From Minisyncoccota bacterium (lineage in GTDB: Bacteria; Patescibacteriota; Minisyncoccia; Moranbacterales; UBA1568), in NCBI GenBank assembly GCA_051306005.1, contig JBPPMJ010000003.1, positions 33,764-97,763 of the forward strand: a DNA stretch of 64,000 bases, written 5' to 3'. The number at the start of each line of letters is the position of its first letter. Within the stretch, counting starts at the first letter, position 1. Shown here in pieces: positions 2,925-60,096 of the stretch. The notes under the pieces are model-generated. The model made no database searches, was not told the origin of the DNA, and saw nothing but the letters and a program-made list of their open reading frames with translations. The translations under genes and the position numbers were made by a program.

Positions 2925-5342
2925 ATGAATCGCGTGTACCGCCCGAAATCATTGGAAACGAAGTGGCAGAAAACTTGGGAACGGCAAGGCACATATCGTC
3001 AGTACAAACGTTCTCGGCAGTGTTATGTACTGGATATGTTTCCCTATCCTTCTGGTGCTGGATTGCATGTAGGTCATCCGCGAGGCTTTGTGGCGTCCGA
3101 TGTGTATGCGCGTTTTAAGCAACTGCAAGGGTACGGAGTGTTGCATCCGATGGGATGGGACGCTTTTGGTTTACCAGCTGAACAGTATGCCATCAAGAAC
3201 AACGTGCATCCGGCCATCGCCGTCAAAAAAAATATTGCGACGTATAAAAAACAATTGCAACGCATCGGCTGCACGTATGACTGGGAACGAGAAATAAATA
3301 CGACTGATCCGGAATATTATCGTTGGACACAGTGGATTTTTTTACAGTTATGGAAAAAAGGATTGGCCTATCAGTCTTTCGAACCGATCCAGTGGTGCCC
3401 GACTTGTCAAACTGGTCTCGCTAATGAAGATGTGGATCAGGGACGATGTGAGCGTTGTGAGAGCGTGGTAGAACAACGTCCGATGCGTCAGTGGATGTTA
3501 AAGATTACCGCTTATGCCGACAAAATGCTTCGTGATTTGCAGAATTTGGAATGGCCAGAAGGCGTCAAAGAAGCGCAGAGAAATTGGATTGGCCGTTCAG
3601 AGGGAACGGAAATAGTGTTTTGTATTGCAGATACCGAAGAGGAAATACGGGTATTTACGACGCGAGTGGATACGATTTTTGGTTGTACCTACCTTGTTTT
3701 GGCTCCAGAACATCCGCTTATCCATACGCTTGAAAAGAAAATTACCAATCTTTCTCAGGTTAAGAAATATAGAGAGGAAACAGCTGGCAAGTCTGATATA
3801 GAGCGAACAGGACTCACTAAAGAAAAAACAGGCGTACTACTTGAAGGTATCGAAGCAGTCCATCCGTTTACTGGAAAACGGTTACCAGTGTTTGTAGCTG
3901 ATTATGTTTTGAAATCTTATGGTACTGGGGCCGTAATGGCGGTACCCGCGCATGATAAACGGGATTTTGTGTTTGCTAAAAAATATCAGTTAGAAATCCT
4001 GACCAGCGTTATTGACGCAGAAGCCCATCTTGTAGAAGAAAAAACAGGGCCTTTCACGGATGACGGTATCCTGGTAGACTCTGGGAACTTTTCCGGACTC
4101 ACGTCTGTGGTTGCTCGTACCAAAATAACAACTTGGTTGCAAAAAGAAAAAATGGGTAAGAAACGTGTGAATTACAAACTGCGTGACTGGGTTTTCTCTC
4201 GCCAACGGTATTGGGGAGAGCCTATACCCCTCGTTCATTGTACAGTGTGTGGCGTGGTGCCGGTTCCGGAGAATGCTTTGCCAGTACGGTTACCATCAGT
4301 AAAATCATATCAGCCAACTGGTACGGGTGAGTCACCACTGGCAGATATTCTCTCGTGGGTCAATGTGCGCTGTCCAAAATGTACTGGTCCTGCCAAGAGA
4401 GAAACAAATACGATGCCCCAATGGGCTGGATCTTCCTGGTATTATCTGCGTTTTATCGATCCATCCAATACACGGGTTCTGGTGAGTACAAAAAAAGAAA
4501 AAATGATGATGCCTGTGGATGTGTATGTGGGTGGTGACCACGCGACACGTCATTTAATTTATGCGCGTTTTTGGCACAAGTTTCTCTATGATCAAGGTAT
4601 TGTGAGTACGCGAGAACCATTTAAACGTTTGGAATTTTTGGGACTCATCTTGGCCACTGATGGACGAAAAATGTCCAAGCGTTGGGGAAACGTGGTGAAT
4701 CCAGATGATATCATAGCTGAATTTGGAGCAGATGCTTTTCGAGTCTATGAAATGTTTATGGGTCCTTTTACACAGTCAATTGCCTGGAATACGGATGGAG
4801 TGGTTGGGGCACGGCGTTTTCTGGAAAAAGTATGGCGTCTGGGACAGAAGATGGAATATCGACGGACAGGGAAAACAGATGCTTCATTGACTGTATTATT
4901 GCACCAGACCATCAAAAAGGTGACTGAGGATATCGAAGGCTTCAAGTTTAACACCGCACTGAGTGCGCTTATGATTCTTGTCAATGCTTTGGAGAAACAT
5001 TCCATACCTCTCTCTCAGTACAAAACGTTGCTTGTGTTGCTTGCACCGTTTGCTCCGCACATAGCAGAAGAACTGTGGATGCAAGCAGGGCATAAAAAAT
5101 CTCTTTTTCTGTCTGTGTGGCCTAAGTGGGATAAGACAAAGATTGTGGCTAAAACTGTCAACATCGTCATACAAGTAAATGGAAAGGTGCGGATGGTGTT
5201 GCCTATCAGTGTGGGTGCATCGGAAGAGCAAGTAAAGACACGGGCTCTGCAGGATGAGAAAATACAAATACATCTTGTAGACAAAACTATGCGGAAAATA
5301 ATATTTGTTCCCGACAAGATTTTGAATATCGTGGTGAGTTGA
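2925..5342 (+). CDS. leuS: leucyl-tRNA synthetase
   Basis: 805 aa; HIGH-class motif PYPSGAGLHVGHPRGF; KMSKS motif KMSKRWGN. Confidence 0.95.
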   Translation: MNRVYRPKSLETKWQKTWERQGTYRQYKRSRQCYVLDMFPYPSGAGLHVGHPRGFVASDVYARFKQLQGYGVLHPMGWDAFGLPAEQYAIKNNVHPAIAVKKNIATYKKQLQRIGCTYDWEREINTTDPEYYRWTQWIFLQLWKKGLAYQSFEPIQWCPTCQTGLANEDVDQGRCERCESVVEQRPMRQWMLKITAYADKMLRDLQNLEWPEGVKEAQRNWIGRSEGTEIVFCIADTEEEIRVFTTRVDTIFGCTYLVLAPEHPLIHTLEKKITNLSQVKKYREETAGKSDIERTGLTKEKTGVLLEGIEAVHPFTGKRLPVFVADYVLKSYGTGAVMAVPAHDKRDFVFAKKYQLEILTSVIDAEAHLVEEKTGPFTDDGILVDSGNFSGLTSVVARTKITTWLQKEKMGKKRVNYKLRDWVFSRQRYWGEPIPLVHCTVCGVVPVPENALPVRLPSVKSYQPTGTGESPLADILSWVNVRCPKCTGPAKRETNTMPQWAGSSWYYLRFIDPSNTRVLVSTKKEKMMMPVDVYVGGDHATRHLIYARFWHKFLYDQGIVSTREPFKRLEFLGLILATDGRKMSKRWGNVVNPDDIIAEFGADAFRVYEMFMGPFTQSIAWNTDGVVGARRFLEKVWRLGQKMEYRRTGKTDASLTVLLHQTIKKVTEDIEGFKFNTALSALMILVNALEKHSIPLSQYKTLLVLLAPFAPHIAEELWMQAGHKKSLFLSVWPKWDKTKIVAKTVNIVIQVNGKVRMVLPISVGASEEQVKTRALQDEKIQIHLVDKTMRKIIFVPDKILNIVVS

Positions 5343-6740: not shown

Positions 6741-8597
6741 ATGTGTGGTATTGTAGGATATTCTGGCAATAAACCAGCTTCAGATTTTTTATTGGAAGGG
6801 CTGCGGCGTTTGGAATATCGCGGATATGACAGTGCTGGAATGGCTATCATGCAATCTGGAAATGGATTGACGCGTGCTCAAAAATCTCCTCATATCGCCA
6901 TTATCAAAGCGGTAGGAAAAGTGGCGGAACTGGAAAAAAAAATGAGTCGCAAAATAGACGGCATGATAGGTATCGCGCATACGCGCTGGGCGACACATGG
7001 TAAACCATCAGAAAAAAACGCGCATCCACATACGGATTGTACCGGTAATATTGCCATCGTCCACAATGGTATTATAGAAAATTATCGTGAACTGAGAGCA
7101 GTATTGGAAAAACAAGGGCATCATTTTCGTTCAGAAACGGATACGGAAGTTATTGCACACCTCATAGAAGAGGCTATGAAAACCTTGTCCTTTGAGGATG
7201 CATTTGGAAAAATGCTCAAACAATTACGTGGCGCATACGGTATCGTCGCTCTCTCGGCACAGGAACCGAATATGCTCTTGGTGGCACGTCTCTCCAGTCC
7301 GTTGGTCATTGGGATCGGGCATCAGGAATTATGTATCGCCTCCGACACTTCAGCGATGGCTGGTAGAGTCAAACGCATTGTATATTTGGACGATCGAGAA
7401 ATCGCTGTAATCAAAGATGGCCATTACATCATCAAATCTTTTGCCAATGTTCCGCGAATCAAAAAAGAAACAGCTTTTGATCAAAATAAGACGGTAGTGG
7501 AACACAGCGGGTACCCGCATTTTATGCTGAAAGAGATTTTTGAACAGCCTCAGAGCTTTGCAGATGCTCTGCGCGGACGTTTGTTGGTAAAAGAGGGGGA
7601 GGCACATCTCGGTGGTTTACGGAATGTTGAGAAGCGTTTGCGAACTATCAAGAAAATCATTATTGTTTCTTGTGGGACATCATACCACTCCGCTCTTGTT
7701 GGAGAATATATGTTAGAAGAGTATGCACATATTCCGACGGAAGTTGAAATGGCATCAGAATTTCGTTATCGTAAACCGTTATTGGATAAGCACACGGCTG
7801 TTATTGCCATTTCGCAATCTGGTGAAACAGCGGATACACTGGCAGCGATTCGAGAGGCCAAGGCGCAGGGTGTATTGACACTTGGTATTGTTAATGTTGT
7901 TGACTCTACCATTGCTCGTGAAACTGACGCTGGCGTCTATTGCCACGCTGGACCTGAAATTTCTGTCGCTTCTACCAAAGCGTTTACGTCACAGTTAGCT
8001 ATTTTAACTTTGTTGACGCTTTATCTTGGACGAAAACGAGACATGTCTCTGGAGACCGGCAAACGTATCGCGCGAGCATTGCAACGAATTCCTCACTCCA
8101 TGGCAGAGATACTCAAACACTCGAAAGCAATGGAAAAAATTGCCAAAAAATATGCTCATGAAACTCAATACATGTATCTTGGACGGAAATATAATTTCCC
8201 TAATGCATTGGAAGGGGCGCTTAAGATTAAAGAAATCGCGTATGTTCCCGCGCAGGGCTACCCAACTGGTGAAATGAAACATGGACCCATCGCTCTTATT
8301 GATCCACAATCTGTTACTATCATCGTGATGCCCAAAGATAGTGTCCATGAGAAAAATATGAGTGGCGTGGAAGAAATCTTGGCGCGTGGTGGGAGAGTTA
8401 TTGCTGTTGCCACTAAAAATGACACCGCCATTGCCCACAAGGCAACGGATAGTATTTGGACTCCCAAGACCATTGAGATGCTGACACCATTGTTGACTGT
8501 CATACCTTTACAATTGTTTGCCTATTTTGTCGCTGTGGAACGTGGTTACGATATCGATAAGCCACGCAATTTAGCAAAGTCAGTTACCGTGGAATAG
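6741..8597 (+). CDS. glmS: glutamine--fructose-6-phosphate aminotransferase
   Basis: MCGIVGY N-terminus with the catalytic Cys after Met; two SIS domains; the ORF-track start at 6729 is 4 codons upstream. Confidence 0.95.
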   Translation: MCGIVGYSGNKPASDFLLEGLRRLEYRGYDSAGMAIMQSGNGLTRAQKSPHIAIIKAVGKVAELEKKMSRKIDGMIGIAHTRWATHGKPSEKNAHPHTDCTGNIAIVHNGIIENYRELRAVLEKQGHHFRSETDTEVIAHLIEEAMKTLSFEDAFGKMLKQLRGAYGIVALSAQEPNMLLVARLSSPLVIGIGHQELCIASDTSAMAGRVKRIVYLDDREIAVIKDGHYIIKSFANVPRIKKETAFDQNKTVVEHSGYPHFMLKEIFEQPQSFADALRGRLLVKEGEAHLGGLRNVEKRLRTIKKIIIVSCGTSYHSALVGEYMLEEYAHIPTEVEMASEFRYRKPLLDKHTAVIAISQSGETADTLAAIREAKAQGVLTLGIVNVVDSTIARETDAGVYCHAGPEISVASTKAFTSQLAILTLLTLYLGRKRDMSLETGKRIARALQRIPHSMAEILKHSKAMEKIAKKYAHETQYMYLGRKYNFPNALEGALKIKEIAYVPAQGYPTGEMKHGPIALIDPQSVTIIVMPKDSVHEKNMSGVEEILARGGRVIAVATKNDTAIAHKATDSIWTPKTIEMLTPLLTVIPLQLFAYFVAVERGYDIDKPRNLAKSVTVE

Positions 8598-10996: not shown

Positions 10997-11436
10997 TGTA
11001 AAAATTGAAAATAAAAACAACTAATATGAATGCAATTCATGTCATACTCACTGAGATTATCATTATCAATACATTACAATGAGGGATATTCAACTCACTG
11101 AGCTCAAAACTGAGAGAGAATCCGAACGTGCTCAGATGAATGCGAAAATCAATAATGCAGAGCTTTCCGATACCGCCAGAGGAATAATATAAGAATTGAA
11201 TTTGTATTTCCTGTTCGCCCCGAATTTCTTCAAAACCAGTAGCGGGACTGATTCATTCGCCCAGTTTCCGTTTGAAAAATGTTCGTGCAAAATCGCTTCC
11301 TATTCTTCATTCCGGCACACCAGAGTGAAATCAAACAGAAATCAATCCTGTCGTTCTGCTTGTTTAGAACAGGTCAACACAAAAAAAGTTTCCGCGTACC
11401 AAAAGTCCTGCTCAGAATTCCGCCAAAACAGAAATG

Positions 11437-11648
11437 CAATGAGTGTTTTTTCTTTCGGGGTTCTGCCTGTAAAGATATTCGGGCAGTGCGTGAGGCTTCA
11501 ATGCGGTCGAGGCAAAGCAAAGCTATTTTTTTTGGATATGGATTTTGGCAAAACCGAGACTAATTTGTTTTTGCATTTTGTCCGCGCGGAGGAGGGGTCT
11601 GGGGAGGAATCCGTGCGGGCTTCTGGGATTTTTTTGGCGTTTCGCGCA
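11437..11648. repeat. left arm of a long inverted repeat; the inner 67 bp (11582-11648) are an exact reverse complement of 13143-13209
   Basis: Aligned by eye: the GC-rich core CCGCGCGGAGGAGGGGTCTGGGGAGGAATCCGTGCGGGCTTCTGGGATTTTTTTGGCGTTTCGCGCA is perfect, with roughly 85-90% identity extending outward to about 11437. Confidence 0.75.
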
Positions 11649-11682
11649 TATGCAAAATTTCCACAATTCTCTTTTTTAGGGT

Positions 11683-12132
11683 ATGATGATTTTATTAAAT
11701 AATTTCCAAATAAATATGAATAATTTTGAATCTCCCCAAAATAGTGTCGAGGAACCAAGAGAAATTAAGAAACTTAATTTCTATAAAGACACTGCGCGCA
11801 AAACATTGACCGGTGAACTCACTTATGGCGACACGGTGTATGAAGATTTGAGAAAATCTTTAGCGGAAGCCGAGGAAGCGAGTATTGATGTGTCCGCCCT
11901 TAAGGTTGAAGTCGAAGAAATTGTCGCTCAAATTCCTAGAGCTGAAATAAATAATGTGCTAAAGAAAACAGAAGAATTCGTCGAGAGTGGAGATATTGCT
12001 TCTGCAAAATCGTGGCACGCAGATTTGGAGAAAAGAATTAGTTATTGGGAAAGTAAGGGGGTATTGGAAAATGAAGAAATTTTGGCATTCCAAAAGAAGT
12101 GTAATGAAATTGGTTCAAAACTTTATTCATAA
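11683..12132 (+). CDS. hypothetical acidic protein (AT-rich cassette gene 1)
   Basis: 149-aa ORF starting 35 nt inside the left repeat; about 30% GC; no recognisable domain. Confidence 0.4.
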   Translation: MMILLNNFQINMNNFESPQNSVEEPREIKKLNFYKDTARKTLTGELTYGDTVYEDLRKSLAEAEEASIDVSALKVEVEEIVAQIPRAEINNVLKKTEEFVESGDIASAKSWHADLEKRISYWESKGVLENEEILAFQKKCNEIGSKLYS

Positions 12133-12140
12133 AAAGTCTA

Positions 12141-12329
12141 TTGAATTTTTCAATATTTATTATGCAAAATTTACAAACCCCACAAGAACAAGAATTGAAA
12201 CATAAAAATGAAAAGTTGAGATTTCAATTATGGAAAAATTCAGAAAAAGTTAAATTTTATGAATTCTTAAAATGGTCTCTTGAAAATCTAAAAATCAAGA
12301 AAATAAAGGACAGTTTATATGGGAATTGA
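12141..12329 (+). CDS. hypothetical small protein (cassette gene 2)
   Basis: 62-aa ORF between the cassette genes; very AT-rich; could be noncoding. Confidence 0.25.
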   Translation: MNFSIFIMQNLQTPQEQELKHKNEKLRFQLWKNSEKVKFYEFLKWSLENLKIKKIKDSLYGN

Positions 12330-13125
12330 AAATCAAAAACCAAACGATAATGAGATAATAAAACCGACTTCGGAAGGCCAGGCTATTGAATCAGAGTCCC
12401 AAATTGTTGGAGCGGAAAAAGAAAGCCGAGAGCTTGAGTTGTCTCTTGAACAAAGCGAGAAACATGTTGAAAGCCTAGAGCAACAATTTAGCACACCTAC
12501 TAATGTTGAAAATCAAGCCGGAGTCTCTTTAGACCCCAGAATTATTGCCTACTTTAGAGAACAATTAGGACCAGAGGAAACTCTAAACAGATTGCGACAT
12601 CTTGGCCCAGATTGGATACCAAAAATTCAAGACGCAATTTTATCTGGAAAATTAGAAACCGTTGCATATTATATGAGCTTAGCCGATCCTGAAAATAATC
12701 CAGATGCGAATATAACAACGTACGCTGGCAAACGAACAGATTATAAAAATGATAAAGAATGGCTAGCTGCAGTTGATGCGGAAGACAGAGAAAGGATGTC
12801 TCATATCTTATCTTATGGTGCTAAACAAATGAATGTTGTAGAAGATATAAAAAGACGACACGACCCTGAACAAAAATATGGAGAACATTATAAAGGCCCT
12901 AAATTAGACGAGGTTTTAGAAAAACTTGGAATGAATAAAAAAGAAAGTAATGACCCTCAAGAAAAAGCTATCCAAGAAAAATTGCAATCAATACCTGACA
13001 AATTTAGAAAATTAAAATCAGCATTGTCTAGTATGAATCCTGATACTAGAAAAATAATTGTTGACGATAATAGTTTACTAAACGCGACAGAACAAGATTT
13101 TGAAAGGTGGCAAGGTTATCTTTAG
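12319..13125 (+). CDS. hypothetical acidic protein (cassette gene 3)
   Basis: 268-aa ORF ending 17 nt before the right repeat; rich in E, D, K and Q; no recognisable catalytic motif. Confidence 0.45.
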   Translation: MGIENQKPNDNEIIKPTSEGQAIESESQIVGAEKESRELELSLEQSEKHVESLEQQFSTPTNVENQAGVSLDPRIIAYFREQLGPEETLNRLRHLGPDWIPKIQDAILSGKLETVAYYMSLADPENNPDANITTYAGKRTDYKNDKEWLAAVDAEDRERMSHILSYGAKQMNVVEDIKRRHDPEQKYGEHYKGPKLDEVLEKLGMNKKESNDPQEKAIQEKLQSIPDKFRKLKSALSSMNPDTRKIIVDDNSLLNATEQDFERWQGYL

Positions 13126-13142
13126 AAGGAATTTTTTATTGT

Positions 13143-13335
13143 TGCGCGAAACGCCAAAAAAATCCCAGAAGCCCGCACGGATTCCTCCCCAGACCCCTCC
13201 TCCGCGCGGGAAATTCAGTCTCGGTTTTGCCAAATCCAAATCCCCAGAAAATAGTTTTGCTTTGCCGAGTTCGCATTGAAGCCCCGCCACACTGCCCGAA
13301 TATCTTTACAGGCAGAACCCCGAAAAGAAAAATGT
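13143..13335. repeat. right arm of the long inverted repeat (partner of 11437-11648)
   Basis: Reverse complement of the left arm; the perfect 67-bp core is at 13143-13209; similarity decays outward to about 13335. Confidence 0.75.
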
Positions 13336-13524
13336 CCTTTCCATTTTAGAAAAATCCACCCCCGCGAAATACAGAAAAGCAAGAGACATTTTTCTTTTTT
13401 GGGTTGCCGAGTGAAGCGAGGCGGTGGCGAGGCGATTCGTCGAGTGTACGATTTAGTTTTGATTCATCATGCGCTTCGCGCGTGGCACATTGTCAGCGAT
13501 TTTGAAAAGGTTATTGTTCTATTC

Positions 13525-13610
13525 TGGTGCCGGGAGAGAGACTTGAACTCTCATGATATTGCTATCGCGGGATTTTGAGTCCCGTGTGTCTACCATTCCA
13601 CCATCCCGGC
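13525..13610 (-). tRNA. tRNA-Leu (anticodon CAA), type II with a long variable arm; CCA encoded
   Basis: Reverse complement reads GCCGGGA-TG-GTGG-AATGGTAG-ACAC-A-CGGGA-CTCAAAA-TCCCG-(16-nt variable arm)-AGAGT-TCAAGTC-TCTCT-CCCGGC-ACCA. Confidence 0.85.
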
Positions 13611-13802
13611 AATATGCGTCGCCTTTTTTCTAAGCCATAATCATCGACTAGAGCATAAAAACAGCATAGAAAATTGATAATCATTTGTCAATGGACTATA
13701 CTATACAGTAGACAAATGATGATCAACAAGATATGTGCGTTGTTCCGATTGTTTGTGGTAAAGATTTTTTGTTTGTCGTGCATGTTATTCATTGACTGAC
13801 CT

Positions 13803-15635: not shown

Positions 15636-16739
15636 TTACAGCAAATTGTTTTTATCTGTTTTTTTGAGTTGTTCCAAAAGCGTTTTGACATTGGCGGAAA
15701 TATCATCACGATGTGCTACAAGCAGGATGTCATCTGTGTCAACAATAATTAAATCTTTGAGACCAATGGTTGCCACGAGCCGTTCTTTCCCGTATATCAA
15801 GATATTTTTACTGTCAAAATCTATATGCTGACCGCGGGAAATCATATGCGTGCCATTTTTTTCTTGAAGGAAAGCGTGTAAGTTACTCCAGCTACCCACA
15901 TCACTCCATCTGAGCGCACTTGGAATGACCAAACGTTGTTCTGCGGAGAGTTTTTCGACGATGAGTGTGTCTATCGGTTCATTGCGTGCGTGTGCATAAA
16001 GCATACTCCGTTTCTCCAGTGATTGATCCAGACTTTCCGTAAGATCGGTGATGACTTGATACAACTCAGGCGTCAACTTGTGAGTCCATTGCGCGAATTG
16101 TCTGGCGGAAAAAATGAAATAGCCTGCGTTCCAGAGGTATTCCCAATTGGAGAGATATTCTTCCGCCGTGACGAGGTCAGGCTTTTCTTTGAACGCATCA
16201 ATATGGAAAATGCGTTTTTCTTCAATGGTGGCAAATTCCTTCCCCATTTTTATATAACCCAGTCCGGTATCTGGATGTGTGGGATTGATACCGACCGTGA
16301 CTAACTTGTCCGGATATTGCATGAGCGTCGTATAGGCGACTCGAAGGGTCGTTTCAAATTCTTCGGGATTTTCGATGGCATGATCCGAGGCGATGGTAGC
16401 CACGATGGCATCGGGATCGATTTTGGCGACCGTCGCGGCGACCAGTGCGATGGCTGGGGCAGTGTTGCGTGGCTGTGGTTCCACTATGAGTCTGGCTGGT
16501 GTTATTTCAGGTAATTGTTCCAAGACAAGTGCCTGGTATTGATCAGTTGTAGAAACGAAAATGTTGTCTTTTGGTACGATGCGCGCCACTCGTTGAAATG
16601 TTTCCTGGATCATCGTTTGTTGTGAAATAAACGCATGGAATTGTTTGGGCATATGCTTGCGTGACAATGGCCAGAGTCGAGTGCCCGATCCTCCGGCCAT
16701 GATGACAGCGTAAGTATGCGCATTATTTTTTGAAGACAT
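15636..16739 (-). CDS. mannose-1-phosphate guanylyltransferase (GDP-mannose pyrophosphorylase)
   Basis: N-terminus AVIMAGGSGTRLWPLSR; 367 aa. Confidence 0.8.
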   Translation of the reverse strand: MSSKNNAHTYAVIMAGGSGTRLWPLSRKHMPKQFHAFISQQTMIQETFQRVARIVPKDNIFVSTTDQYQALVLEQLPEITPARLIVEPQPRNTAPAIALVAATVAKIDPDAIVATIASDHAIENPEEFETTLRVAYTTLMQYPDKLVTVGINPTHPDTGLGYIKMGKEFATIEEKRIFHIDAFKEKPDLVTAEEYLSNWEYLWNAGYFIFSARQFAQWTHKLTPELYQVITDLTESLDQSLEKRSMLYAHARNEPIDTLIVEKLSAEQRLVIPSALRWSDVGSWSNLHAFLQEKNGTHMISRGQHIDFDSKNILIYGKERLVATIGLKDLIIVDTDDILLVAHRDDISANVKTLLEQLKKTDKNNLL

Positions 16740-17013
16740 AAATCGAGTGAGTGTATTATTTTTTTATCAAACATTCCTTTATCATAGTATACGGGGTGTT
16801 TTCTTTTTGAACAATCGTCTAAAGGAACATTTTTTTAGAAACGACAATGAAACAGAGCATCACTATGCAGAGTATTGGATATATTAAGTGCGCCATAAGG
16901 CTTTGCACTGCTTCTTTTAGGTAATATTTTGATATTTTTGAAAAAATACTTTATACTATATTTAAAGTATTTTTAAGGAGGGGTAGTTATTACTTGTAAC
17001 GTATTGATAATGT

Positions 17014-19656
17014 ATGATATCTGAAAAGCCGTCATTTGTGCATTTTAAAGAAAGGATGAATCTGTCGTCATCAACGCAGACTTTGCCAAAAGACACACCG
17101 GTACAAAATACCACTGGTGTACACACCGATTTCAAGGGACCGAATACAATACAAAGGAGTAGCGTCGCAGGCCATCATTCCAAGACCGCGAGTTTTTTAG
17201 AAGGCGTTGTTTCAGTGAGTTTGGTGGCCTTGTTTTTTGGATTACCGTTATTTTTTACTGGCCTCACTTTTCAGGGAATTGTTTTTGAAAAGCAAATATA
17301 TTTTTATTTCTGGCTTTTGATTGGTGTTGTGGCATGGGCATCCAAAGGCATCGTTGTCGGAGAAATGCGTATTCGCCGAACACCATTGGACATACCGCTT
17401 CTCTTGTTTTGGCTCTTTTATGTTGTAACCGCCTTTTTTTCCGTCGATCGCTGGCATAGCTTCTGGGGATCGTTTGGTGATCCGTCACGAGGAGTGATTG
17501 CAGTCACCGCGTTTGTGTTGGTATATTATTTTGTACTTAGTCATTTCAATCCCAAGCGTTTTTATTGGATGTTCTGGTCATTTTTGATGTCGGGTTTTTT
17601 GGTGACCGTATGGAGTTTTTTGGTGGTCATGAAATGGACTTTTCTGCCGGAAGCATTACTGCGTATTGCACCCATGAGCCTCATGGGAAGTATATCTGCA
17701 CTTGGAATATTCCTGGGTTTCTTGATCCCGATTTTCATGCTCGGCACCTTTCTGTTGTGGAAGGTTGATACGCGTGTTTCCAAAAAAATGCGTGCCGTGG
17801 GGGTGACAATAATCTTATTAGGGCTTCTTTTGGCATTATTCTTATTGTTAGCGCTTTACTCATTTGTCTCATGGATCATGGTTATCGGGGGGCTGAGTTT
17901 TTTTCTCGTATATGTTCTGTCACAGGTAGTCCGTCCCGCTGAACAATGGACGTGGGTTCCCATGGCCGTTTTTATTATCGTTTTGGCCTTTCTGATGATT
18001 GGACAAAACAATTTAGTGCGTGTGACACTGCCAGTTGAAGTGGCTCCAAACATCAATCTTTCTTGGAAGATTGCCAAGGATGCCTTGCAGGAAAATTTTC
18101 TGACTGGCACAGGACCGGCAAATTATGGCTATGCTTTCTCTTTGTTTCGTCCGCAAGAATACAATTTAAATTCATTGTATACACTGCGTTTCTATCAGGG
18201 GTCCGGTATGCCTTTTGAAATGCTTTCGACTATCGGCGTTATCGGAACGGTCTTGTTTATGCTACTTTGGCTCTCAGCGCTTTCAGTGGGTTTCTTTTTA
18301 TTGACAAGTGACAGACAGCGAAACAAAGTAGCATCACTCGGTCTTTGGACAGTCAGTGTGATGTTTTTTCTGGCTAGTATGTCGGTGATGATGAATGGAA
18401 CGTTGCTTGCGCTCGGTGTACTACTAACGACACTTGCTCTCGGAGTTCTGTTGTGGGAGAGTGGCACTGAAGAGCGATATATTCAACTGTCTTTCAAGAC
18501 ATCTCCAAAATTCGCCCTTGCGCTTGCTTTCATTTTTATGGTTGTGTCCGCAGGTGTAGCGTTTTTGTTTGTCTTTATGGGGAAAGTTTTTGTGGCAGAT
18601 GTCTCTGTTGGCAAGGCAGTGCGCATGTCTGTGAATGGACCGAGTCTTGATGCAGTCAATGTGTTATCGCGCTCTATCGAAATTTATCCGCAAGAGGGTC
18701 ATTATTATACTCGTTTGGGACAAGAATATATGGCACTTGCCAATATGGAAGCAGGAAAACCCGATGATACACGGGATACAGATGCGGTTGTGGCATATGT
18801 GCGTGAAGCGATTAATGCTGGGGAAATATCTAAGCGAATTATGCCCAATGATGTAATGACTGTGGAATTATTGGGACTTTTGTATGAGAATGCTGGACTG
18901 TATGCGAGTGACGCATTAGCCAGTGCTGAAGTCTTGTATAAACGAGCCTTAGAATTAGAGCCACATAATCCATTGTATTCTTTGAAATTGGGACAAATCA
19001 AAAAATCAGAAGGTGACAAGATGAAGGGTGCGGATCAGAGTACGCGTTATCAAGAGGCAAAAACATTGTTTGAAACTGCTATTGCAGAGAAAAAAGATTT
19101 GTCAGTAGCTCACTATAACCTCTCTGTCGTATTGGCGCGTTTACAAGAAATAGATCAAGCCATCGAAAGTGCGAAAATGGCCGTTTTTCTTGATAGTCAG
19201 AATTTGAATTATCGTTATAACGCTGGTGTGTTGTATCAGTTACGTGCCAAGGAAGGAGATTTGACAGTGGCTGAATCAATATTCAAAGATATCCTCAGCG
19301 TGAATGATAAATTGATTGATGTACGTTTGAGTCTGGGGCTTTTGTATGAGGCACAGAAGAAAAATGATCTCGCCATTGCGGAATATGAAAACATTCTCAC
19401 CAATATCTCTGCAGAAGGAGACGAAGGCACTTTCAGTAAAACTCGTGAACAGATACTGCAGTTTATTGCGAATGTGCGTAATGGTACGGGTAATTTAAAA
19501 CAGGCTAACAATGTTTCTTCTGCGGAAATCACACCTCCTGTTTCGACTCCTGCACCAGCATTGGCACCGGAAACTTCTGCTGTCTCACCAACCAACCAAC
19601 CAGCACCTCCGCTGTTTCCTCCGGCTCCATCGCCATCAGAACCAACAACTCCATAG
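17014..19656 (+). CDS. polytopic membrane protein (O-antigen ligase/Wzy_C-like) with C-terminal TPR repeats and a Pro-rich tail
   Basis: About 12 predicted TM helices in the first 520 aa; TPR-like helical repeats over residues 560-820; C-terminus PAPALAPETSAVSPTNQPAPPLFPPAPSPSEPTTP. Confidence 0.6.
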   Translation: MISEKPSFVHFKERMNLSSSTQTLPKDTPVQNTTGVHTDFKGPNTIQRSSVAGHHSKTASFLEGVVSVSLVALFFGLPLFFTGLTFQGIVFEKQIYFYFWLLIGVVAWASKGIVVGEMRIRRTPLDIPLLLFWLFYVVTAFFSVDRWHSFWGSFGDPSRGVIAVTAFVLVYYFVLSHFNPKRFYWMFWSFLMSGFLVTVWSFLVVMKWTFLPEALLRIAPMSLMGSISALGIFLGFLIPIFMLGTFLLWKVDTRVSKKMRAVGVTIILLGLLLALFLLLALYSFVSWIMVIGGLSFFLVYVLSQVVRPAEQWTWVPMAVFIIVLAFLMIGQNNLVRVTLPVEVAPNINLSWKIAKDALQENFLTGTGPANYGYAFSLFRPQEYNLNSLYTLRFYQGSGMPFEMLSTIGVIGTVLFMLLWLSALSVGFFLLTSDRQRNKVASLGLWTVSVMFFLASMSVMMNGTLLALGVLLTTLALGVLLWESGTEERYIQLSFKTSPKFALALAFIFMVVSAGVAFLFVFMGKVFVADVSVGKAVRMSVNGPSLDAVNVLSRSIEIYPQEGHYYTRLGQEYMALANMEAGKPDDTRDTDAVVAYVREAINAGEISKRIMPNDVMTVELLGLLYENAGLYASDALASAEVLYKRALELEPHNPLYSLKLGQIKKSEGDKMKGADQSTRYQEAKTLFETAIAEKKDLSVAHYNLSVVLARLQEIDQAIESAKMAVFLDSQNLNYRYNAGVLYQLRAKEGDLTVAESIFKDILSVNDKLIDVRLSLGLLYEAQKKNDLAIAEYENILTNISAEGDEGTFSKTREQILQFIANVRNGTGNLKQANNVSSAEITPPVSTPAPALAPETSAVSPTNQPAPPLFPPAPSPSEPTTP

Positions 19657-50343: not shown

Positions 50344-52503
50344 TTATTGGTTCATTTTGTCTGGACGATGATTGGGGCACTCTTTTTTGGAACAGCGGTC
50401 GGGGATGGTTTTGGTTCCTGCCATCATAAGAGAACCACAGAGGGGACAGAGGGAGCCGGTCGGTTTGGCCTTGATAGCATTTTTGCAATCGGGATAGTTG
50501 CTACAACTATAAAATATCCCAAAACGTCCACGTCGTTCAGTCATTTTGCCTTTGTGACAGACGGGACAATCAACATTCGTTGAAGGTTCTGCGTGTTCAT
50601 CTTTTTTGATGAATTTGCATTTGGGAAAGTTGGAACATGCCACAAAGGTGCCAAACTTGCCTTCGCGGGTAATGAGCCTGCCGTTTTTGCATTGCGGACA
50701 GGCCTCGCCTGTTTCTTGAGGTGGCGCTATTTCTTTACCTTCGGAAGTGAGGGCGCCATCGCATTCAGGAAAACGTGAACAGCTGAAAAATTTTCCTGAG
50801 CGCGATAGTTTGATGATCATAGTGGCACCGCACTTGGGACAGAGGGTGCCTACTGGAGCTTCGCCCATGTTCGTGACTTTGTCGATTTTTTCTTTGTTTT
50901 TGACAGCCTGAGCAAAAGGGGTGTAGAAATCTGTGAGTGTTTTGACGTAGTCTCGTTCACCATGAGCGATGTCATCAAGTTTATTTTCCATATCAGCGGT
51001 AAAAGTTTCGGAAACGATATTAGCGAAATGAGCAAAGAGAAAATCATCCACGACGATGCCGGTATCAGTGACAGACAGTGCCTTTCCTTCTTTCCGAACA
51101 TATCCTCGATCCTGAATAGTCTTGATAATAGAGGCATAGGTACTCGGACGTCCGATACCGCGTTTTTCAAGTTCTTTGACGAGTCCGGCTTCGGTGTAGC
51201 GTTTCGGCGGTTCGGTTTGTTTTTCTTCGGACGTGATGGCAGTAATCGTGAGAGGATCGGAAGCAGTGAGATGAGGAACCTCTACATCATCTCCGCGTGC
51301 CTGAGTATCGAGTGCGAGCCATCCATCAAAGAGGAGACGTGAACCATTGAGTACAAAATCTGGCAGAGAGCGTGAGAGCGTATTGGCGATAATCTTGGTG
51401 CGTAAGATCCTCGCATCGCTCATTTGGGAAGCCAAGGTTCGGACGCGGATAAGAGTATACAATTTTTTCTCATCTTCGGTGATGCCGGCAGAAACTTTGG
51501 CACTATCCGTTGGACGAATAGCTTCATGTGCTTCTTGGGCGTTTTTGCTTTTTGTTTTGTAGTGACGCACTGTGAGATGTGATTCACCAAAGGTTTTCTG
51601 GATGACGGCAATGATAGCAGGCAAAGCATTTTCGGAAAGTGATATGCTGTCCGTCCGCATATACGTGATGTGTCCTTGTTCGTAGAGTTTCTGAGCCGCT
51701 CGCATCGTTCGTGAGGGAGACATGCCAAGACGAGAGCTGGCGGTTTGCTGGAGAGTGGAAGTGGTAAAAGGCGCATAGGGACGACGCACGGCTTCGGTTT
51801 CATTGATTGAAACGATAGACCAAGGTTCCTGACGGGCCCGCGTAAGAATATCCTCTGCCATTTGTTTATCTTTTGGCTGTTCACTGCAGAGTAGAGTCAA
51901 GGTTGTTTGTTCTGCGGTATGACACTTTGCACTAATAGTATAGTAGGTTACTGGTATAAAATTTGCTATTTCTTTTTCGCGGAGAGCAAGGATATGCAAA
52001 GCGGGAGACTGGACACGTCCGGCAGACAGACCGTAGCGCACTTTCTTCCAGACGAGGCTGGATAAATCATAGCCGACAAGACGGTCCAAAACTCGTCGAG
52101 CTTCTTGAGCTTTGCGGAGATTGGTATCGAGCTGGCGTGGGTGATTGACTGCTTCTCTGACCGCTTTTTCGGTAATTTCATAAAATAACACGCGTTGCGG
52201 TTTTTTGATAGCGCAAATATCTGCTACGTGCCAGGCGATAGCTTCTCCTTCACGATCTGGGTCGGTAGCGAGAAAGATAGTGTCACTTTTCTTGACGAGT
52301 GTTTTGAGCTCTTTGACGATGGTTTCTTTACCAGGGGAGACGATATAGTGCGGTACAAAACCGCCAGCTATGTCGATAGCATCTTTGTTGGATTTGGGAA
52401 GATCACGAATATGTCCTACGGAAGCGATAACTTTGTACTCATTATTGAGATACTTTTCAATCGTTTTGGCTTTGGAAGGAGATTCAACAATGAGAAGCTT
52501 CAT
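50344..52503 (-). CDS. topA: DNA topoisomerase I
   Basis: MKLLIVESPSKAKTIEKYL TOPRIM N-terminus; three C-terminal C4 zinc ribbons. Confidence 0.95.
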   Translation of the reverse strand: MKLLIVESPSKAKTIEKYLNNEYKVIASVGHIRDLPKSNKDAIDIAGGFVPHYIVSPGKETIVKELKTLVKKSDTIFLATDPDREGEAIAWHVADICAIKKPQRVLFYEITEKAVREAVNHPRQLDTNLRKAQEARRVLDRLVGYDLSSLVWKKVRYGLSAGRVQSPALHILALREKEIANFIPVTYYTISAKCHTAEQTTLTLLCSEQPKDKQMAEDILTRARQEPWSIVSINETEAVRRPYAPFTTSTLQQTASSRLGMSPSRTMRAAQKLYEQGHITYMRTDSISLSENALPAIIAVIQKTFGESHLTVRHYKTKSKNAQEAHEAIRPTDSAKVSAGITEDEKKLYTLIRVRTLASQMSDARILRTKIIANTLSRSLPDFVLNGSRLLFDGWLALDTQARGDDVEVPHLTASDPLTITAITSEEKQTEPPKRYTEAGLVKELEKRGIGRPSTYASIIKTIQDRGYVRKEGKALSVTDTGIVVDDFLFAHFANIVSETFTADMENKLDDIAHGERDYVKTLTDFYTPFAQAVKNKEKIDKVTNMGEAPVGTLCPKCGATMIIKLSRSGKFFSCSRFPECDGALTSEGKEIAPPQETGEACPQCKNGRLITREGKFGTFVACSNFPKCKFIKKDEHAEPSTNVDCPVCHKGKMTERRGRFGIFYSCSNYPDCKNAIKAKPTGSLCPLCGSLMMAGTKTIPDRCSKKECPNHRPDKMNQ

Positions 52504-53618
52504 AGGGCGGTCGTTGTTTTTATATAATGCATACCGCCGATATCTTTTGCACAGCCTTTAATCTCAAGCAGTGAGAGTGCCACAGTCACAGACGATGTCT
52601 CTAGTCTAACGGCTTTGATAATCTTGTCAACGTGGATGGGTTCATGCGAGAGGTTTTGGAGGATCTGTTGTTCAATGTCGGAAAGTCCGGGAATAGTATG
52701 AGAAAGAGGAGGTGCCGATGAGTTGGTAGTGAGCAGAGATCGCGTCAAGGGTAATTCTTCGAGGATGTCTTGAACGGAGGTGACGATTTTGGCACCGGAC
52801 CTGATGAGGGCATGCGTACCGATAGAGGTAGGGGAAAAGATAGATCCAGGCACTGCAAAAACTTCGCGATTGTAATCGAGGGCGAGACGCGCGGTGATGA
52901 GTGTGCCACTTTGTTCTGTTGCCTCAATCACGAGCGTCCCTAGACACATGCCAGCCATGATGCGGTTGCGTGCTGGAAATGTGCCTTCATTGGGTTGGGT
53001 ACCGGGGCGATACTCTGACAATATCGCGCCAGTTTGCATGATATGATTCGCCAATTTCATATGAGAACGAGGGGCGATGGAAGTGTCATTGACACCACCA
53101 GCCAGAACGGCCAGTGTATATCCACCAGTATCAAGAGCGGTTTGGTGCGCAATAGCATCAATGCCGAAAGCGAGGCCGGAAACAATCACGAATCCCGCTC
53201 GCACGAGGTCTGCAACCAGGCGTTCTGTGACTTGTTTACCGTATGGAGTGAAACGACGTGAACCAACAATCGCCAGAGTCGGATGTTCATTCCATCGATA
53301 GTGTCCACGTGCATACAGAAGGATGGGTGCATCAGGCGTTTCTGCTAAGAGGGCTGGGTAGCGAGGGTCGGTAACGGGAAGTATGTCGATGCCTTGTGCA
53401 CAGACACGTTCCCATTCTTGGACAGGATTGAGAGCACGCCTTCCTGTCATCAATGCAGAGACTGTCTTGGGACCGAGACCCTTGATAGAGAGGAGCGTTT
53501 TTTCGTCAGCGGACCAAACCGCTTCTATGCTTCCGCATTGTCGAATGAGCTCATGCAAAGTCTTGGTGCCGATACCGGGAATCAGGGTGCAGGCATGGAG
53601 GAGGATAGTTGTATCCAT
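52500..53618 (-). CDS. dprA: DNA-processing protein DprA (Smf)
   Basis: Rossmann-like core GIDAIAHQTALDTGGYTLAVLAGG; 4-nt overlap with topA; start probably MDTTILL at 53618. Confidence 0.85.
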   Translation of the reverse strand: MDTTILLHACTLIPGIGTKTLHELIRQCGSIEAVWSADEKTLLSIKGLGPKTVSALMTGRRALNPVQEWERVCAQGIDILPVTDPRYPALLAETPDAPILLYARGHYRWNEHPTLAIVGSRRFTPYGKQVTERLVADLVRAGFVIVSGLAFGIDAIAHQTALDTGGYTLAVLAGGVNDTSIAPRSHMKLANHIMQTGAILSEYRPGTQPNEGTFPARNRIMAGMCLGTLVIEATEQSGTLITARLALDYNREVFAVPGSIFSPTSIGTHALIRSGAKIVTSVQDILEELPLTRSLLTTNSSAPPLSHTIPGLSDIEQQILQNLSHEPIHVDKIIKAVRLETSSVTVALSLLEIKGCAKDIGGMHYIKTTTAL

Positions 53619-53769
53619 AGGAAAGAAAAAAGAAAGTACTGTTATTGTACTGGTTCCTGACGGTATGAGCAACTGATTACACAGCATCTTTTTCATTTCA
53701 TGGTATTGATGAGGCAATAATTTCGGTAAACACCACTTAGGCATTTTTCTTCACCCATGTTTCAACATA

Positions 53770-57720: not shown

Positions 57721-60096
57721 ATGGAAACCAAGACAGCTGGTGGTGAAGCGATGCGGGTACAGCTCTCTATCGGCGGGATGCATTGTGCATCGTGCGCCAA
57801 TATCATTGATCGCGAATTGAAAAAAGTACCAGGGGTATGGCAATCCAACGTCAATTTCGGGACGGAAAAAGCGACGGTGAGTTTTGATGGAACGACGAAT
57901 ATTGACGCGTTGAAAAAAGTAATCAAAGAAGCCGGCTACACAGCGGACGTGGTGGATGTGGCAGATATCGAATACGAAACCAAGAAACGTTCCCGTGTCG
58001 AGCGAGAGTGGCGCCAGAAATTTTTGTGGGGGCTGGCATTGTCGTTCCCGATGTTTTATTTTATGCTGTTTGATTTTTTTCATATTTTTGGTCGGACGAT
58101 ACTTTTGCCGTATGTCGGTATTTTCTCTTTACTCCTAACTCTTCCGGTGCAATTTTGGATTGGCAAGGGCTTCTATCACGGGATGTGGTCGTCGCTCAAG
58201 ATGCGGATGTTCAATATGGATAGTCTGATTGCCATCGGAACGACGATGGCTTTCATCTACAGTACAGCGAATTATCTTCTCTATGCAGTACAGAATGCCT
58301 CGCTAGTCGGCGTGTGGGGAGAAAAAATTCCGGAATTATATTTTGAGACGGCGGCGTTTCTGATTACATTTGTCATTTTTGGCAAGTGGCTTGAGGCACG
58401 CACCAAGGGAAAAACGTCAGACGCTATCCGATCTTTGATGCAACTTTCCGCCAAGACTGCGCGTGTGGTACGAAACGACACAACAGAAGATATTTCAGTG
58501 GAGGATGTTGTGCACGGTGATGTGGTAGTTGTGCGCCCGGGGGAGCGGATACCAGTGGACGGCGTGGTACGGATAGGGCACTCCACGGTGGATGAGTCGA
58601 TGGTCACAGGAGAAAGTATGCCAGTGGAAAAAAATGTCGGTGCGATGGTGATCGGCGGGACGGTCAACAAAGTGGGAAGTTTCGAATTTTCAGCGACACG
58701 CGTGGGCAGTGAAACGACGTTAGCAAACATCGTGCGTCTGATAGAGGAAGCGCAGGGATCAAAAGCGCCGATTCAGGATTTTGCCGATCGTATCGCGGGT
58801 TGGTTTGTACCGGCAGTAATCAGTATCGCACTCCTCACATTTGTCGTGTGGTATTTTTTCCTGGGCGCATCATTTGCTTTTGCGGTGATGACCTTTACGG
58901 CAGTGATTGTTATCGCCTGTCCTTGCGCGCTTGGGTTGGCAACACCGACGGCCTTGATGGTTGGGACTGGAAGAGGCGCCCAAAACGGCATCTTGATCAA
59001 AGGTGGCGGACCACTAGAAGCGACACGAGCCATCACCGCTATCGTGTTTGACAAGACCGGAACACTGACCAAAGGAAAACCGGAAGTGACCGATATTTTG
59101 TCATTTGGCACGCGATCAGAAAATGATATCGTAACCGTTACTGCTTCACTGGAACGGCAATCGGAACATCCATTGGCGGAAGCGATTTATGCTTTTGCTG
59201 AAAAAAATGGTTTAGCATCGCAGGCTGTCACGGATTTTCAGGCACTCTCCGGCAAAGGTGTGATTGGTAGGATAGACGGAAAGATATACGCTTTTGGCAA
59301 TCGAATGCTGGTCGCAGAACAAGGTATCGCACTTTCAGCAGAAGCCGAGCAGATAGTGATGGATTGGGAATCAGTCGGGAAAACCGTGATGTACCTGATG
59401 GAAAACAAAGTGGTACTTGGGGCGATCGCGGTCGCGGACACGGTCAAGGAAACTTCCAAAGAAGCGGTACGGCAACTCAAAAAATTCGGATTGGAAGTGT
59501 GGATGGTGACGGGCGATAACGAGCGCACGGCCCAGGCGATTGCGAAAGCAGTCAACATTGACAATGTGATGGCGGGAGTTCTGCCAGAACACAAAGCAAC
59601 GAAGATCAAGGAATTGCAATCACAAGGAAAAAAAGTGGCGATGGTCGGAGACGGTATCAATGACGCGCCGGCATTGGCACAAGCGGATCTCGGAATCGCG
59701 ATGGGTGCTGGGACAGATGTCGCGATGGAGACGGGCGGGATTGTCCTGATGAAAAACGATTTGCGCGACGTGGCGACAGCTTTTGAACTCTCGCGGGAAA
59801 CGATGAGCAAGATCAAGCAGAATCTGTTTTTCGCGTTGCTCTACAATGTGATGGGTATTCCCATAGCTGGCAGGGTATTCATCGGTTTCGGTATCGTGCT
59901 GAAACCGGAATTGGCAGGATTGGCGATGGCGCTCTCATCGGTGTCGGTGGTTATCAATTCTCTCCTTCTGCGCTTTTTCCGTCCGGGAAAGCGTAACTGG
60001 CTGTCATTTGTAGCGCCGTTTGTAATGGTGTTGGCATTTTCGTTCCTATTTTTTGAATTCGCCCGACTGAGTAGCACCCAGTCTATGGGGATGTAA
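57721..60096 (+). CDS. copA: Cu(I)-translocating P1B-type ATPase
   Basis: N-terminal [12 protein letters not shown]; CPC in [11 protein letters not shown]; DKTGTLT; SEHPLA; [10 protein letters not shown]; MALSS in the last TM helix. Confidence 0.9.

Follow-up and report, generated by a model that had tools for sequence, protein, structure and literature searches.

An AT-rich three-gene segment of a Minisyncoccota genome as a horizontally transferred cassette between structured inverted repeats

We analyzed a stretch of 64,000 nt from a Minisyncoccota genome (assembly GCA_051306005.1, contig JBPPMJ010000003.1; hereafter the window, with positions counted from its first letter), in which an AT-rich pocket of three small genes lies between folD and a tRNA-Leu(CAA) gene followed by parA. 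Comparison with related contigs shows this segment to be a horizontally transferred cassette flanked by inverted repeats. It is well supported as an orphan within a large family of cassettes that are flanked by such repeats ('arms') and carry diverse accessory cargo in bacteria of the Candidate Phyla Radiation (CPR, or Patescibacteria). These bacteria have very small genomes with few recognisable mobile elements, and how they acquire accessory genes is poorly understood. Our overall reading, to which we assign a probability of about 0.5, is that of an acquired cassette of ~2 kb (11432-13484) that has its own promoter, belongs to this arm-bounded family and is exchanged by recombination at a conserved hairpin of the arms (hairpin 2), with a candidate recombinase acting in trans.

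The pocket stands out from its surroundings in composition, as an initial annotation made from the sequence had claimed. GC content is 34.5% over the coding block (11716-13125) against a window mean of 45.0% (standard deviation 2.9% in 1410-nt windows; z = -3.6), which is the lowest value among the 1252 sliding 1410-nt windows of the 64 kb and the sole stretch below 39%. At third codon positions, GC amounts to 0.23-0.32 in the cassette genes, against 0.38-0.42 in folD, parA, parB and glmS.

Contigs carrying homologues of gene 3 place the gene set in eight distinct neighbourhoods (L numbers denote related contigs fetched for comparison), either as genes 1, 2 and 3 or as genes 2 and 3 where gene 1 has been lost or internally deleted. 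In the window, the set lies between folD and tRNA-Leu(CAA)-parA. Elsewhere, it is found between tRNA-Ser(GCT) and restriction-modification genes (L001-4), by tRNA-Arg(TCG) followed by an M50 peptidase gene and rpsL (L005-7), by tRNA-Leu(TAA), tRNA-Cys, rbfA and infB (L008), by ddl (L009), by LDcluster4 and an RNase T-like gene (L010), between an intron-containing tRNA-Arg(GCG) and prfB-ftsE (L011-13), and by tRNA-Leu(TAG) (L014-15). In L011, gene 1 has shrunk to an in-frame remnant of ~20 codons. The cassette keeps a steady GC content of 33-37% across these contexts, although the host flanks span 36-52%.

Aligned together with its arms over 1932 nt, the cassette is 85.6% identical in DNA to a contig that bears the label Candidatus Kerfeldbacteria, whereas the core genes of the host are isolated. 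The best non-self identity of its FolD is at most 55% among 5.8 billion proteins, with 53% in the best species-representative genome and 35% in a Kerfeldbacteria genome. Likewise, a DprA-like open reading frame (ORF) of the window (52500-53744) is 40% identical to the annotated DprA of L009, against 79-86% for the cassette proteins on the same contig. Isolated host core genes, set against a cassette so much more similar across lineages, exclude vertical inheritance. The cassette is itself a recombinant mosaic, since synonymous divergence between the window and L001 is unequal, at 0.90 for gene 1 and 0.28 for gene 3. The suggestion that the region was mobile and possibly something not yet described is supported.

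The cassette is bracketed by an inverted repeat of ~220 nt, in which 11432-11650 is the reverse complement of 13143-13346 at 80-86% identity. Within these two arms, a core of 67 nt is 100% identical (11582-11648 vs 13143-13209). The initial annotation had described the spacer after folD as repeat-containing; the repeat is real, but it had gone unrecognised as one arm of an inverted pair around the cassette. A covariance model of the arm repeat (R1) finds exactly two arms in the 64 kb. The left arm (11432-11650, + strand, read inward) is truncated on its outer side, with a score of 125.5 bits (E = 1.5e-30); the right arm (13143-13484, - strand, read inward) is of the long form and scores 108.4 bits (E = 3.9e-26) at 13147-13266. 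The next match, at 58007-58098 (+), scores 15.1 bits (E ~0.05) and is probably due to chance.

The left arm comprises, in order, a small hairpin at 11463-11486, a degenerate hairpin 1 at ~11511-11566, the 'core' hairpin 2, whose stem (11582-11589 / 11611-11618) encloses a G-rich loop of 21 nt, then a U-run at 11630-11636 and the tail, which ends at 11650. In the right arm, an outer region (13484-13350) is followed by a small hairpin, hairpin 1, and then hairpin 2 with its U-run and tail (13209-13143). Hairpin 1 is degenerate in both arms of the window, its 5' half resembling one subtype and its 3' half another. Compared with the L001 and L009 arms, the right arm is homologous as far as 13484 and 13438, respectively. 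The L009 contig ends at 6866-6922 in an Illumina adapter (…ACACTCTTTCCCTACACGACGCTCTTCCGATCT) fused to its right arm, an assembly artefact in a public metagenome contig. We had taken 13376-13483 for a relic of the 3' end of a recombinase gene and withdrew this, as the match reflects arm-to-arm DNA homology through an ORF that enters the arm of L146.

A tRNA gene borders the cassette in most of its contexts: a tRNA 3' end faces it in six of the eight, through six different tRNAs and at either cassette end, and two contexts have no tRNA. One of these tRNA genes, the tRNA-Arg(GCG) of L011 (1-305), carries a 231-nt intron in its anticodon loop; it was missed by default ARAGORN and by Rfam and was found when introns were allowed. 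The position next to a tRNA 3' end, together with the low GC content, would suit a classical tRNA-targeted island or a prophage remnant that has lost its tyrosine integrase, and the initial annotation had named the tRNA a classic integration site. We consider this very improbable and largely refuted. No direct repeat of at least 14 nt involves the tRNA (13525-13610), and hence none of its 3' end; the bounding repeats are inverted and structured, and span 130-400 nt. Such an island would be only 2.5 kb long, would have to have used six different tRNAs, now on one side of the cassette and now on the other, and has no PHROG matches among its proteins. The recombinase linked to the family (see below) is moreover of the large serine type, not a tyrosine integrase. 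A search of metagenomes and viromes, as the initial annotation had proposed, recovered the cassette and its arms from the former, while a set of 2.9 million viral contigs yielded neither a gene 3 relative nor the arm core. Nor does the cassette abut the tRNA, as had been stated, because ~400 nt of conserved non-coding arm separate the coding block from it.

Across the related loci, the arms share a common anatomy. The outer part is variable and begins with a promoter-like box (e.g., TTGGCGGTGTCTATTGTACAAAAT) or straight after a co-directional tRNA gene. In hairpin 1, the stem differs wholly among subtypes (GGTTTTGCGAAAA, GGCAAAACGAAAA, CGCCCCGCC, GGCAGGGC), while the loop UUUUCUGGGGAnAnGGA is conserved. 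Hairpin 2 has a GC-rich stem of 9-10 bp (CCCGCGCGG/CCGCGCGGG) and a G-rich loop of 21 nt (AGGAGGGGUCUGGGGAGGAAU), and is followed by a U-run and then by a cassette-specific tail of 25-45 nt. In a structure test on 115 distinct sequences, 97.7% of cells pair, against at most 52% with the partners slid; the alignment was fitted to the model, which favours structure, and the slid controls are far lower nonetheless. Hairpin 1 shows many compensatory double changes, at 9 of 9 pairs. The U·G pairs, which number 31 of 104 at the base of hairpin 2, agree with the inward-reading strand, while folding of the 399-nt right arm gives modest z-scores of -2.3 and -2.6 for the two strands and does not settle the strand. 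The arms of the window and of six canonical loci have no Rfam 15 match at E ≤ 1.

Hairpins backed by covariation, conserved loops, U·G pairs on one strand and a U-run behind hairpin 2 are also what one would expect if the arms were primarily an RNA element: a leader, an insulator, a terminator or a small RNA co-transcribed with tRNAs, paired around the cargo to block incoming transcription from both sides and unrelated to mobility. The frequent start of arms at a promoter-like box or right after a co-directional tRNA gene points the same way. This explanation is nevertheless unlikely, as it fails to explain the identical cassette-specific tails, the sharp break in homology described below and the eight contexts; the downstream arm copy, in addition, is antisense to the cargo, and no Rfam family matches. 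An RNA role and a mobile-cassette role are not mutually exclusive. On the inward strand, the U-run lies 10-12 nt downstream of hairpin 2, whose 21-nt loop is atypical for a terminator, and a simple terminator scan made no call. As a second role beside cassette exchange, hairpin 2 and the U-run may form a terminator against read-through from an upstream tRNA or recombinase gene.

The arms are not restricted to this gene set. A 23-nt pattern of the core is present in at least 120 metagenome contigs, in which R1 finds 38 convergent pairs (+ then -) with an inner spacing of 1.47-4.1 kb. Given at least 4.5 kb of sequence in which to find a partner, only three arms stand alone; 44 further arms lie too near a contig end to judge. 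The cargo is unrelated between pairs, with Pfam assignments spread over many families, has a GC content of 32-41% and is encoded on either strand relative to the arm pair. It includes small HTH_3 proteins, S-adenosylmethionine-dependent methyltransferases, complete sets of amino-acid ATP-binding cassette transporter genes, NUDIX/ASCH and SET proteins, type I and type II restriction-modification genes, a LexA-methylase fusion, a 1105-aa surface protein, GluRS and many proteins without domains.

Two loci depart from the convergent arrangement. L195 has two arms facing away from each other (3237-3354, -, and 3704-3838, +), their outer ends 20 nt apart, which implies two neighbouring cassettes without a recombinase module between them. 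In L163 (3096-3140), the 21-nt loop of hairpin 2 is reverse-complemented (ATTCCTCCCCAAACCCCTCC) while both stem halves around it are intact, and neither tail nor cargo follows; this arm may be the scar of a cassette lost through the palindromic stems.

The point at which arms of different cassettes cease to resemble each other is sharply defined. These arms are 88-96% identical over 300-400 nt, and then similarity ends abruptly. We counted 744 inter-locus alignments that span 150 nt or more of the outer arm and extend as far as the core, and measured their ends from the start of the 23-nt core pattern. Sixteen end within 20 nt, 341 at 21-30 nt, 242 at 31-45 nt, 111 at 46-70 nt and one at 71-150 nt, while 33 extend beyond 150 nt, into the cargo. 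Homology between arms of different cassettes thus breaks at the 3' edge of hairpin 2. The two arms of one pair share ~95-100% identity in core and tail, with tails that differ from cassette to cassette. Outer arms within a pair range from identical (L107, L136, L156) through diverged (82% in L009, 66-69% in the window) to unrelated (L001, L120, L125, L175). Moreover, orthologous platforms of ~90% identity carry differing tails and cargo (L153 vs L155; L099 and L121 vs L209 and L117). The sharp break, together with different tails and cargo on orthologous platforms, indicates that the travelling unit is tail-cargo-tail, joined to the platform at hairpin 2.

The same junction could arise if the arms served as portable homology, with a RecA-mediated double crossover in the arms after DNA uptake and the serine recombinase as a frequent passenger. 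CPR bacteria are thought to be naturally competent, and the window encodes the DprA-like ORF mentioned above. Arms of 130-400 nt with 88-96% identity between unrelated cassettes offer ample substrate for homologous recombination, similarity stops at the tail, where conservation stops, as this explanation predicts, and the junction is accounted for equally well. Hybrid arm pairs exist (e.g., L125, L120), and most arms have no recombinase nearby. We regard this alternative as the main rival, if a somewhat improbable one, because it leaves three features unexplained: the same cassette-specific tail, inverted, at both ends; the arrival of arms at new loci by different tRNAs; and the presence of 16 of 17 recombinase genes within ~1 kb of an arm.

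This recombinase is the one dominant family that ORF clustering over 120 loci recovers outside the arm pairs. The family, a large serine recombinase, combines Resolvase, Recombinase and Zn_ribbon_recom domains (as in L146) and scores highest in NCBIfam against CcrB, XisF, CcrA and CcrC, in every case well short of the cut-off (110 bits for CcrB in L146, against a cut-off of 900). The gene occupies 3275-4969 in L146 and 4517-6085 in L133. The 16 genes or fragments near arms lie 150-1060 nt from an arm core, 15 of them on its outer side. Each recombinase gene is bracketed by a GC-rich inverted repeat of its own (IR-X), 100-149 nt long with 89-99% identity (74% in L109). The two copies lie at 3111-3253 and 4667-4810 in L146, 9228-9376 and 10651-10799 in L209, 4191-4339 and 5909-6057 in L133, 3279-3397 and 4959-5078 in L153, and 3072-3170 and 4583-4682 in L188. 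One copy falls inside the 3' coding part of the gene, so that inversion would swap the C-terminus of the enzyme. Indeed, the 1.4-kb recombinase segment of L117 is inverted relative to the adjacent arm when compared with the ~90% identical L099, L121, L209 and L191. Recombinase clusters at 90% identity carry the labels Woesebacteria, Nomurabacteria, Harrisonbacteria, Kerfeldbacteria and Taylorbacteria and have lengths of 442-581 aa; this range and the mixed labels would fit alternative 3' ends after inversion and a spread across CPR lineages.

We propose that recombination within the conserved arms passes cassettes from genome to genome and from locus to locus, with the 3' edge of hairpin 2 as the junction. 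The moving unit would be tail-cargo-tail, and the outer arm part of the landing platform. As the sites are inverted, a recombinase acting on them could invert or exchange the cassette but not excise it, as in recombinase-mediated cassette exchange with inverted sites. For this role, the likeliest candidate is the Ccr/XisF-like large serine recombinase found beside arms elsewhere, which would have to work in trans here, since no recombinase is encoded in the window: none is present among the ORFs of 8.5-16.5 kb, and tblastn finds no large serine recombinase in the whole window. The initial annotation had rightly seen no integrase, transposase or recombinase in or beside the cassette, and its description of a decayed or trans-mobilised element fits the truncated left arm, the degenerate hairpin 1 and a candidate recombinase that is confined to related loci.

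Several observations weigh against exchange by this enzyme. Beyond its absence from the window, the recombinase is nearby for only 10 of the 61 arms with at least 1.7 kb of outer flank, and the observed inversion of its segment uses IR-X rather than hairpin 2 and is therefore no demonstration that the enzyme acts on arms. Ordinary homologous recombination in conserved arms would also yield a sharp junction and hybrid arms, such as those of L125. The metagenome loci were retrieved by the exact core pattern, so that the invariance of the core is partly built in. No cargo was found in opposite orientations in any pair of contigs; short-read assemblers can be misled by inverted repeats into mis-oriented segments, and many contigs end at arms. 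Lastly, the FolD search shows the host to be without a close relative, which leaves no empty site for comparison.

Inverted repeats around a cargo that contains no transposase also recall mobile insertion cassettes and the restriction-modification units of PMC2853133, and the arms could be read as the terminal inverted repeats of a non-autonomous composite transposon or of one of the miniature inverted-repeat type, with the transposase elsewhere. A transposase gene of the IS110 family does adjoin one arm (L120). The outermost ends of the arms are, however, the least conserved and are variably truncated, the conserved part being internal; L107 and L153 show no target-site duplication; no autonomous element with the same ends appears in the cargo of 25 pairs or in the ORF clustering of the 120 loci; and the IS110 gene resembles an insertion into an arm rather than a partner of the arms. 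We therefore hold transposition of this kind to be quite unlikely, less so than an island at the tRNA but more so than a pure RNA element.

The IS110-family gene of L120 (1370-2464, -) lies directly outside an atypical arm at 2713, in which ...CATACTGGGTCT stands in place of the 5' half of hairpin 2. This replacement recurs in L103 (~60-113) and L137 (~1784-1830), as if an IS110-type element had targeted the hairpin-2 loop. We rejected the CATACTGGGTCT junction as a breakpoint in that loop, since L120, L103 and L137 share this sequence and are not independent. Such arms are either a further arm variant or the insertion of an adjacent IS110-type element.

The three ORFs of the cassette all have the same orientation (+). 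Gene 1 (11716-12132) encodes a protein of 138 aa with an isoelectric point (pI) of 4.8; its start was set at 11716, where the homologues begin with MNKFE, in place of the mechanical ORF start at 11683. Gene 2 (12162-12329, mechanically opened from a TTG at 12141) encodes a basic protein of 55 aa (pI 9.65) and has a GC content of 22.8%. Gene 3 (12319-13125) encodes an acidic protein of 268 aa (pI 4.9) that is predicted to be all-helical. Gene 3 begins within the last 11 nt of gene 2, an arrangement suggestive of translational coupling. Where the initial annotation had listed three acidic proteins of 149, 62 and 268 aa, the three ORFs and the last length stand, while homologue starts shorten the first two and the middle protein is basic.

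All three are real genes under purifying selection, as judged from ratios of non-synonymous to synonymous substitution (dN/dS) against five to seven homologous loci: 0.09-0.12 for gene 1, 0.04-0.08 for gene 2 and 0.14-0.25 for gene 3. The refuting case named in the initial annotation, ORFs without a coding signal in homologous loci, thus does not apply. Gene 1 has five homologue clusters (69-89% identity) and gene 3 has eight (64-100%), the latter with just 17 profile matches among 1.84 billion representatives; gene 2 is 89-98% identical in L004 and L008. As had been noted, no domains are recognisable, and searches of the three proteins against Pfam, PHROGs, PADLOC, NCBIfam and PDB sequences returned nothing significant. 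Structure prediction, one of the checks suggested at the outset, gave a confident five-helix bundle for gene 1 (predicted local distance difference test score, pLDDT, 91.7), with no match in the PDB fold library at E ≤ 0.001, and a poor model for gene 3 (pLDDT 56). Three helices of gene 1 weakly resemble ribosomal protein S20 (TM-score ~0.6-0.7 normalised to S20, E ~1), and there is a sub-threshold Pfam S20p match and one source annotation as S20.

A promoter-like site (11658-11687, +; TTTCCA-N18-TATGAT), found by a consensus scan, lies between the left-arm tail and gene 1, and a matching box is seen by eye 5' of gene 1 in the printed sequences of L001, L009 and L010. On the other side, the tRNA-Leu(CAA) gene (13525-13610, -) is confirmed on the minus strand by ARAGORN and by Rfam (tRNA, 58.6 bits); it runs in the direction of the right arm, 40 nt upstream of it, and a promoter scan places a promoter-like site for it at 13691-13663. 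The spacer after folD (10997-11431, no strand) probably lies outside the cassette and has no supported ORF of at least 40 aa. In blastn of 11000-11715 against the related loci, matches begin only at ~11422, with no homologue upstream. Two tiny ORFs of 18 and 37 codons at 11024-11195 have no homologue in any fetched locus. The non-coding gap to folD, first put at ~440 bp, actually measures ~690-720 nt. Farther along the window, a second, smaller GC dip (~35%) at 16600-17200 covers the start and upstream region of a mannose-1-phosphate guanylyltransferase-like gene.

The arm cassettes share features with several known systems without coinciding with any of them. Serine invertase segments (Gin and the G segment of phage Mu, Cin, Hin, Pin) and shufflons likewise have a segment of a few kilobases between inverted sites, here with a perfect 67-nt core, and a serine recombinase gene adjoining or within the invertible segment, both orientations being seen for the recombinase segment among related contigs. 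Invertases, however, switch gene ends or promoters at one fixed locus, do not exchange cargo and use sites of ~26-34 bp, whereas the cargo of the arm family is unrelated between cassettes, has its own promoter and has yielded no inversion isomers. The pdif modules of Acinetobacter plasmids and engineered cassette exchange both place accessory modules between inverted sites with no recombinase inside, and pdif modules show the same module in different contexts and different modules in the same context. Their sites are 28-bp XerC/XerD sites on plasmids; those described here sit in structured arms of 130-400 nt on CPR chromosomes, and the candidate enzyme is a large serine recombinase. Integrons resemble the family in their small mobile cassettes, in structured sites (attC) with covarying stems and in a recombinase encoded outside, on the platform. 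They differ in that attC sites are direct, one per mostly promoterless cassette, and are recombined by a tyrosine recombinase as folded single strands, while an arm cassette has two inverted sites and its own promoter. No tyrosine recombinase was found in the Pfam-scanned cargo and recurrent neighbours of the related loci, a scan that left most outer-flank genes outside.

Restriction-modification units between long inverted repeats without a transposase were described by Furuta, Abe and Kobayashi (2010; PMC2853133). Like them, the arm cassettes have compact cargo with no mobility gene inside, and some carry restriction-modification genes. The repeats of those units are 26-65 bp long and unique per unit, some with 8-bp target duplications (PMC2853133), in contrast to one conserved, structured arm family around dozens of unrelated cargos with no target duplication seen. 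In the staphylococcal and Enterococcus cassette chromosomes (SCC and ECC), accessory cassettes are handled by a large serine recombinase, as proposed for the arm family, and the recombinase of the related loci scores best against CcrB, CcrA and CcrC; cassettes without a recombinase of their own exist there as well, as ccr-less pseudo-SCC elements. ECC cargo is highly variable (PMC6222049), as in the arm family. SCC, however, resides at one conserved gene (the 3' end of rlmH), has short direct and inverted repeats and extends over tens of kilobases. Arm cassettes measure 1.5-4 kb, have long, structured inverted arms and occupy many loci, often at tRNA 3' ends; the recombinase gene linked to them appears invertible, and its product scores far below the Ccr cut-offs.

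A full-text literature search found no description of such cassettes in CPR bacteria, and the family apparently has not been described so far. An arm-bounded cassette explains how three conserved genes come to lie in an AT-rich pocket by a tRNA without an integrase. We tentatively entertain, as possible rather than probable, a broader proposal in which platforms made of structured arms and an invertible large serine recombinase gene form a lineage-wide exchange system of CPR/Patescibacteria. Cassettes of 1.5-4 kb, each between inverted copies of the hairpin site, would be swapped or inverted there and never lost by excision; nature would thus have its own version of engineered cassette exchange, and these genomes one of their main routes of gene flow. 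If the serine recombinase acts on the 40-bp hairpin site, it would be a new candidate tool for cassette exchange. The arms also provide a simple sequence marker for accessory genes in metagenomes. Altogether, with one arm family around dozens of unrelated cargos in several candidate phyla, these cassettes would be a major vehicle of gene flow in CPR bacteria.

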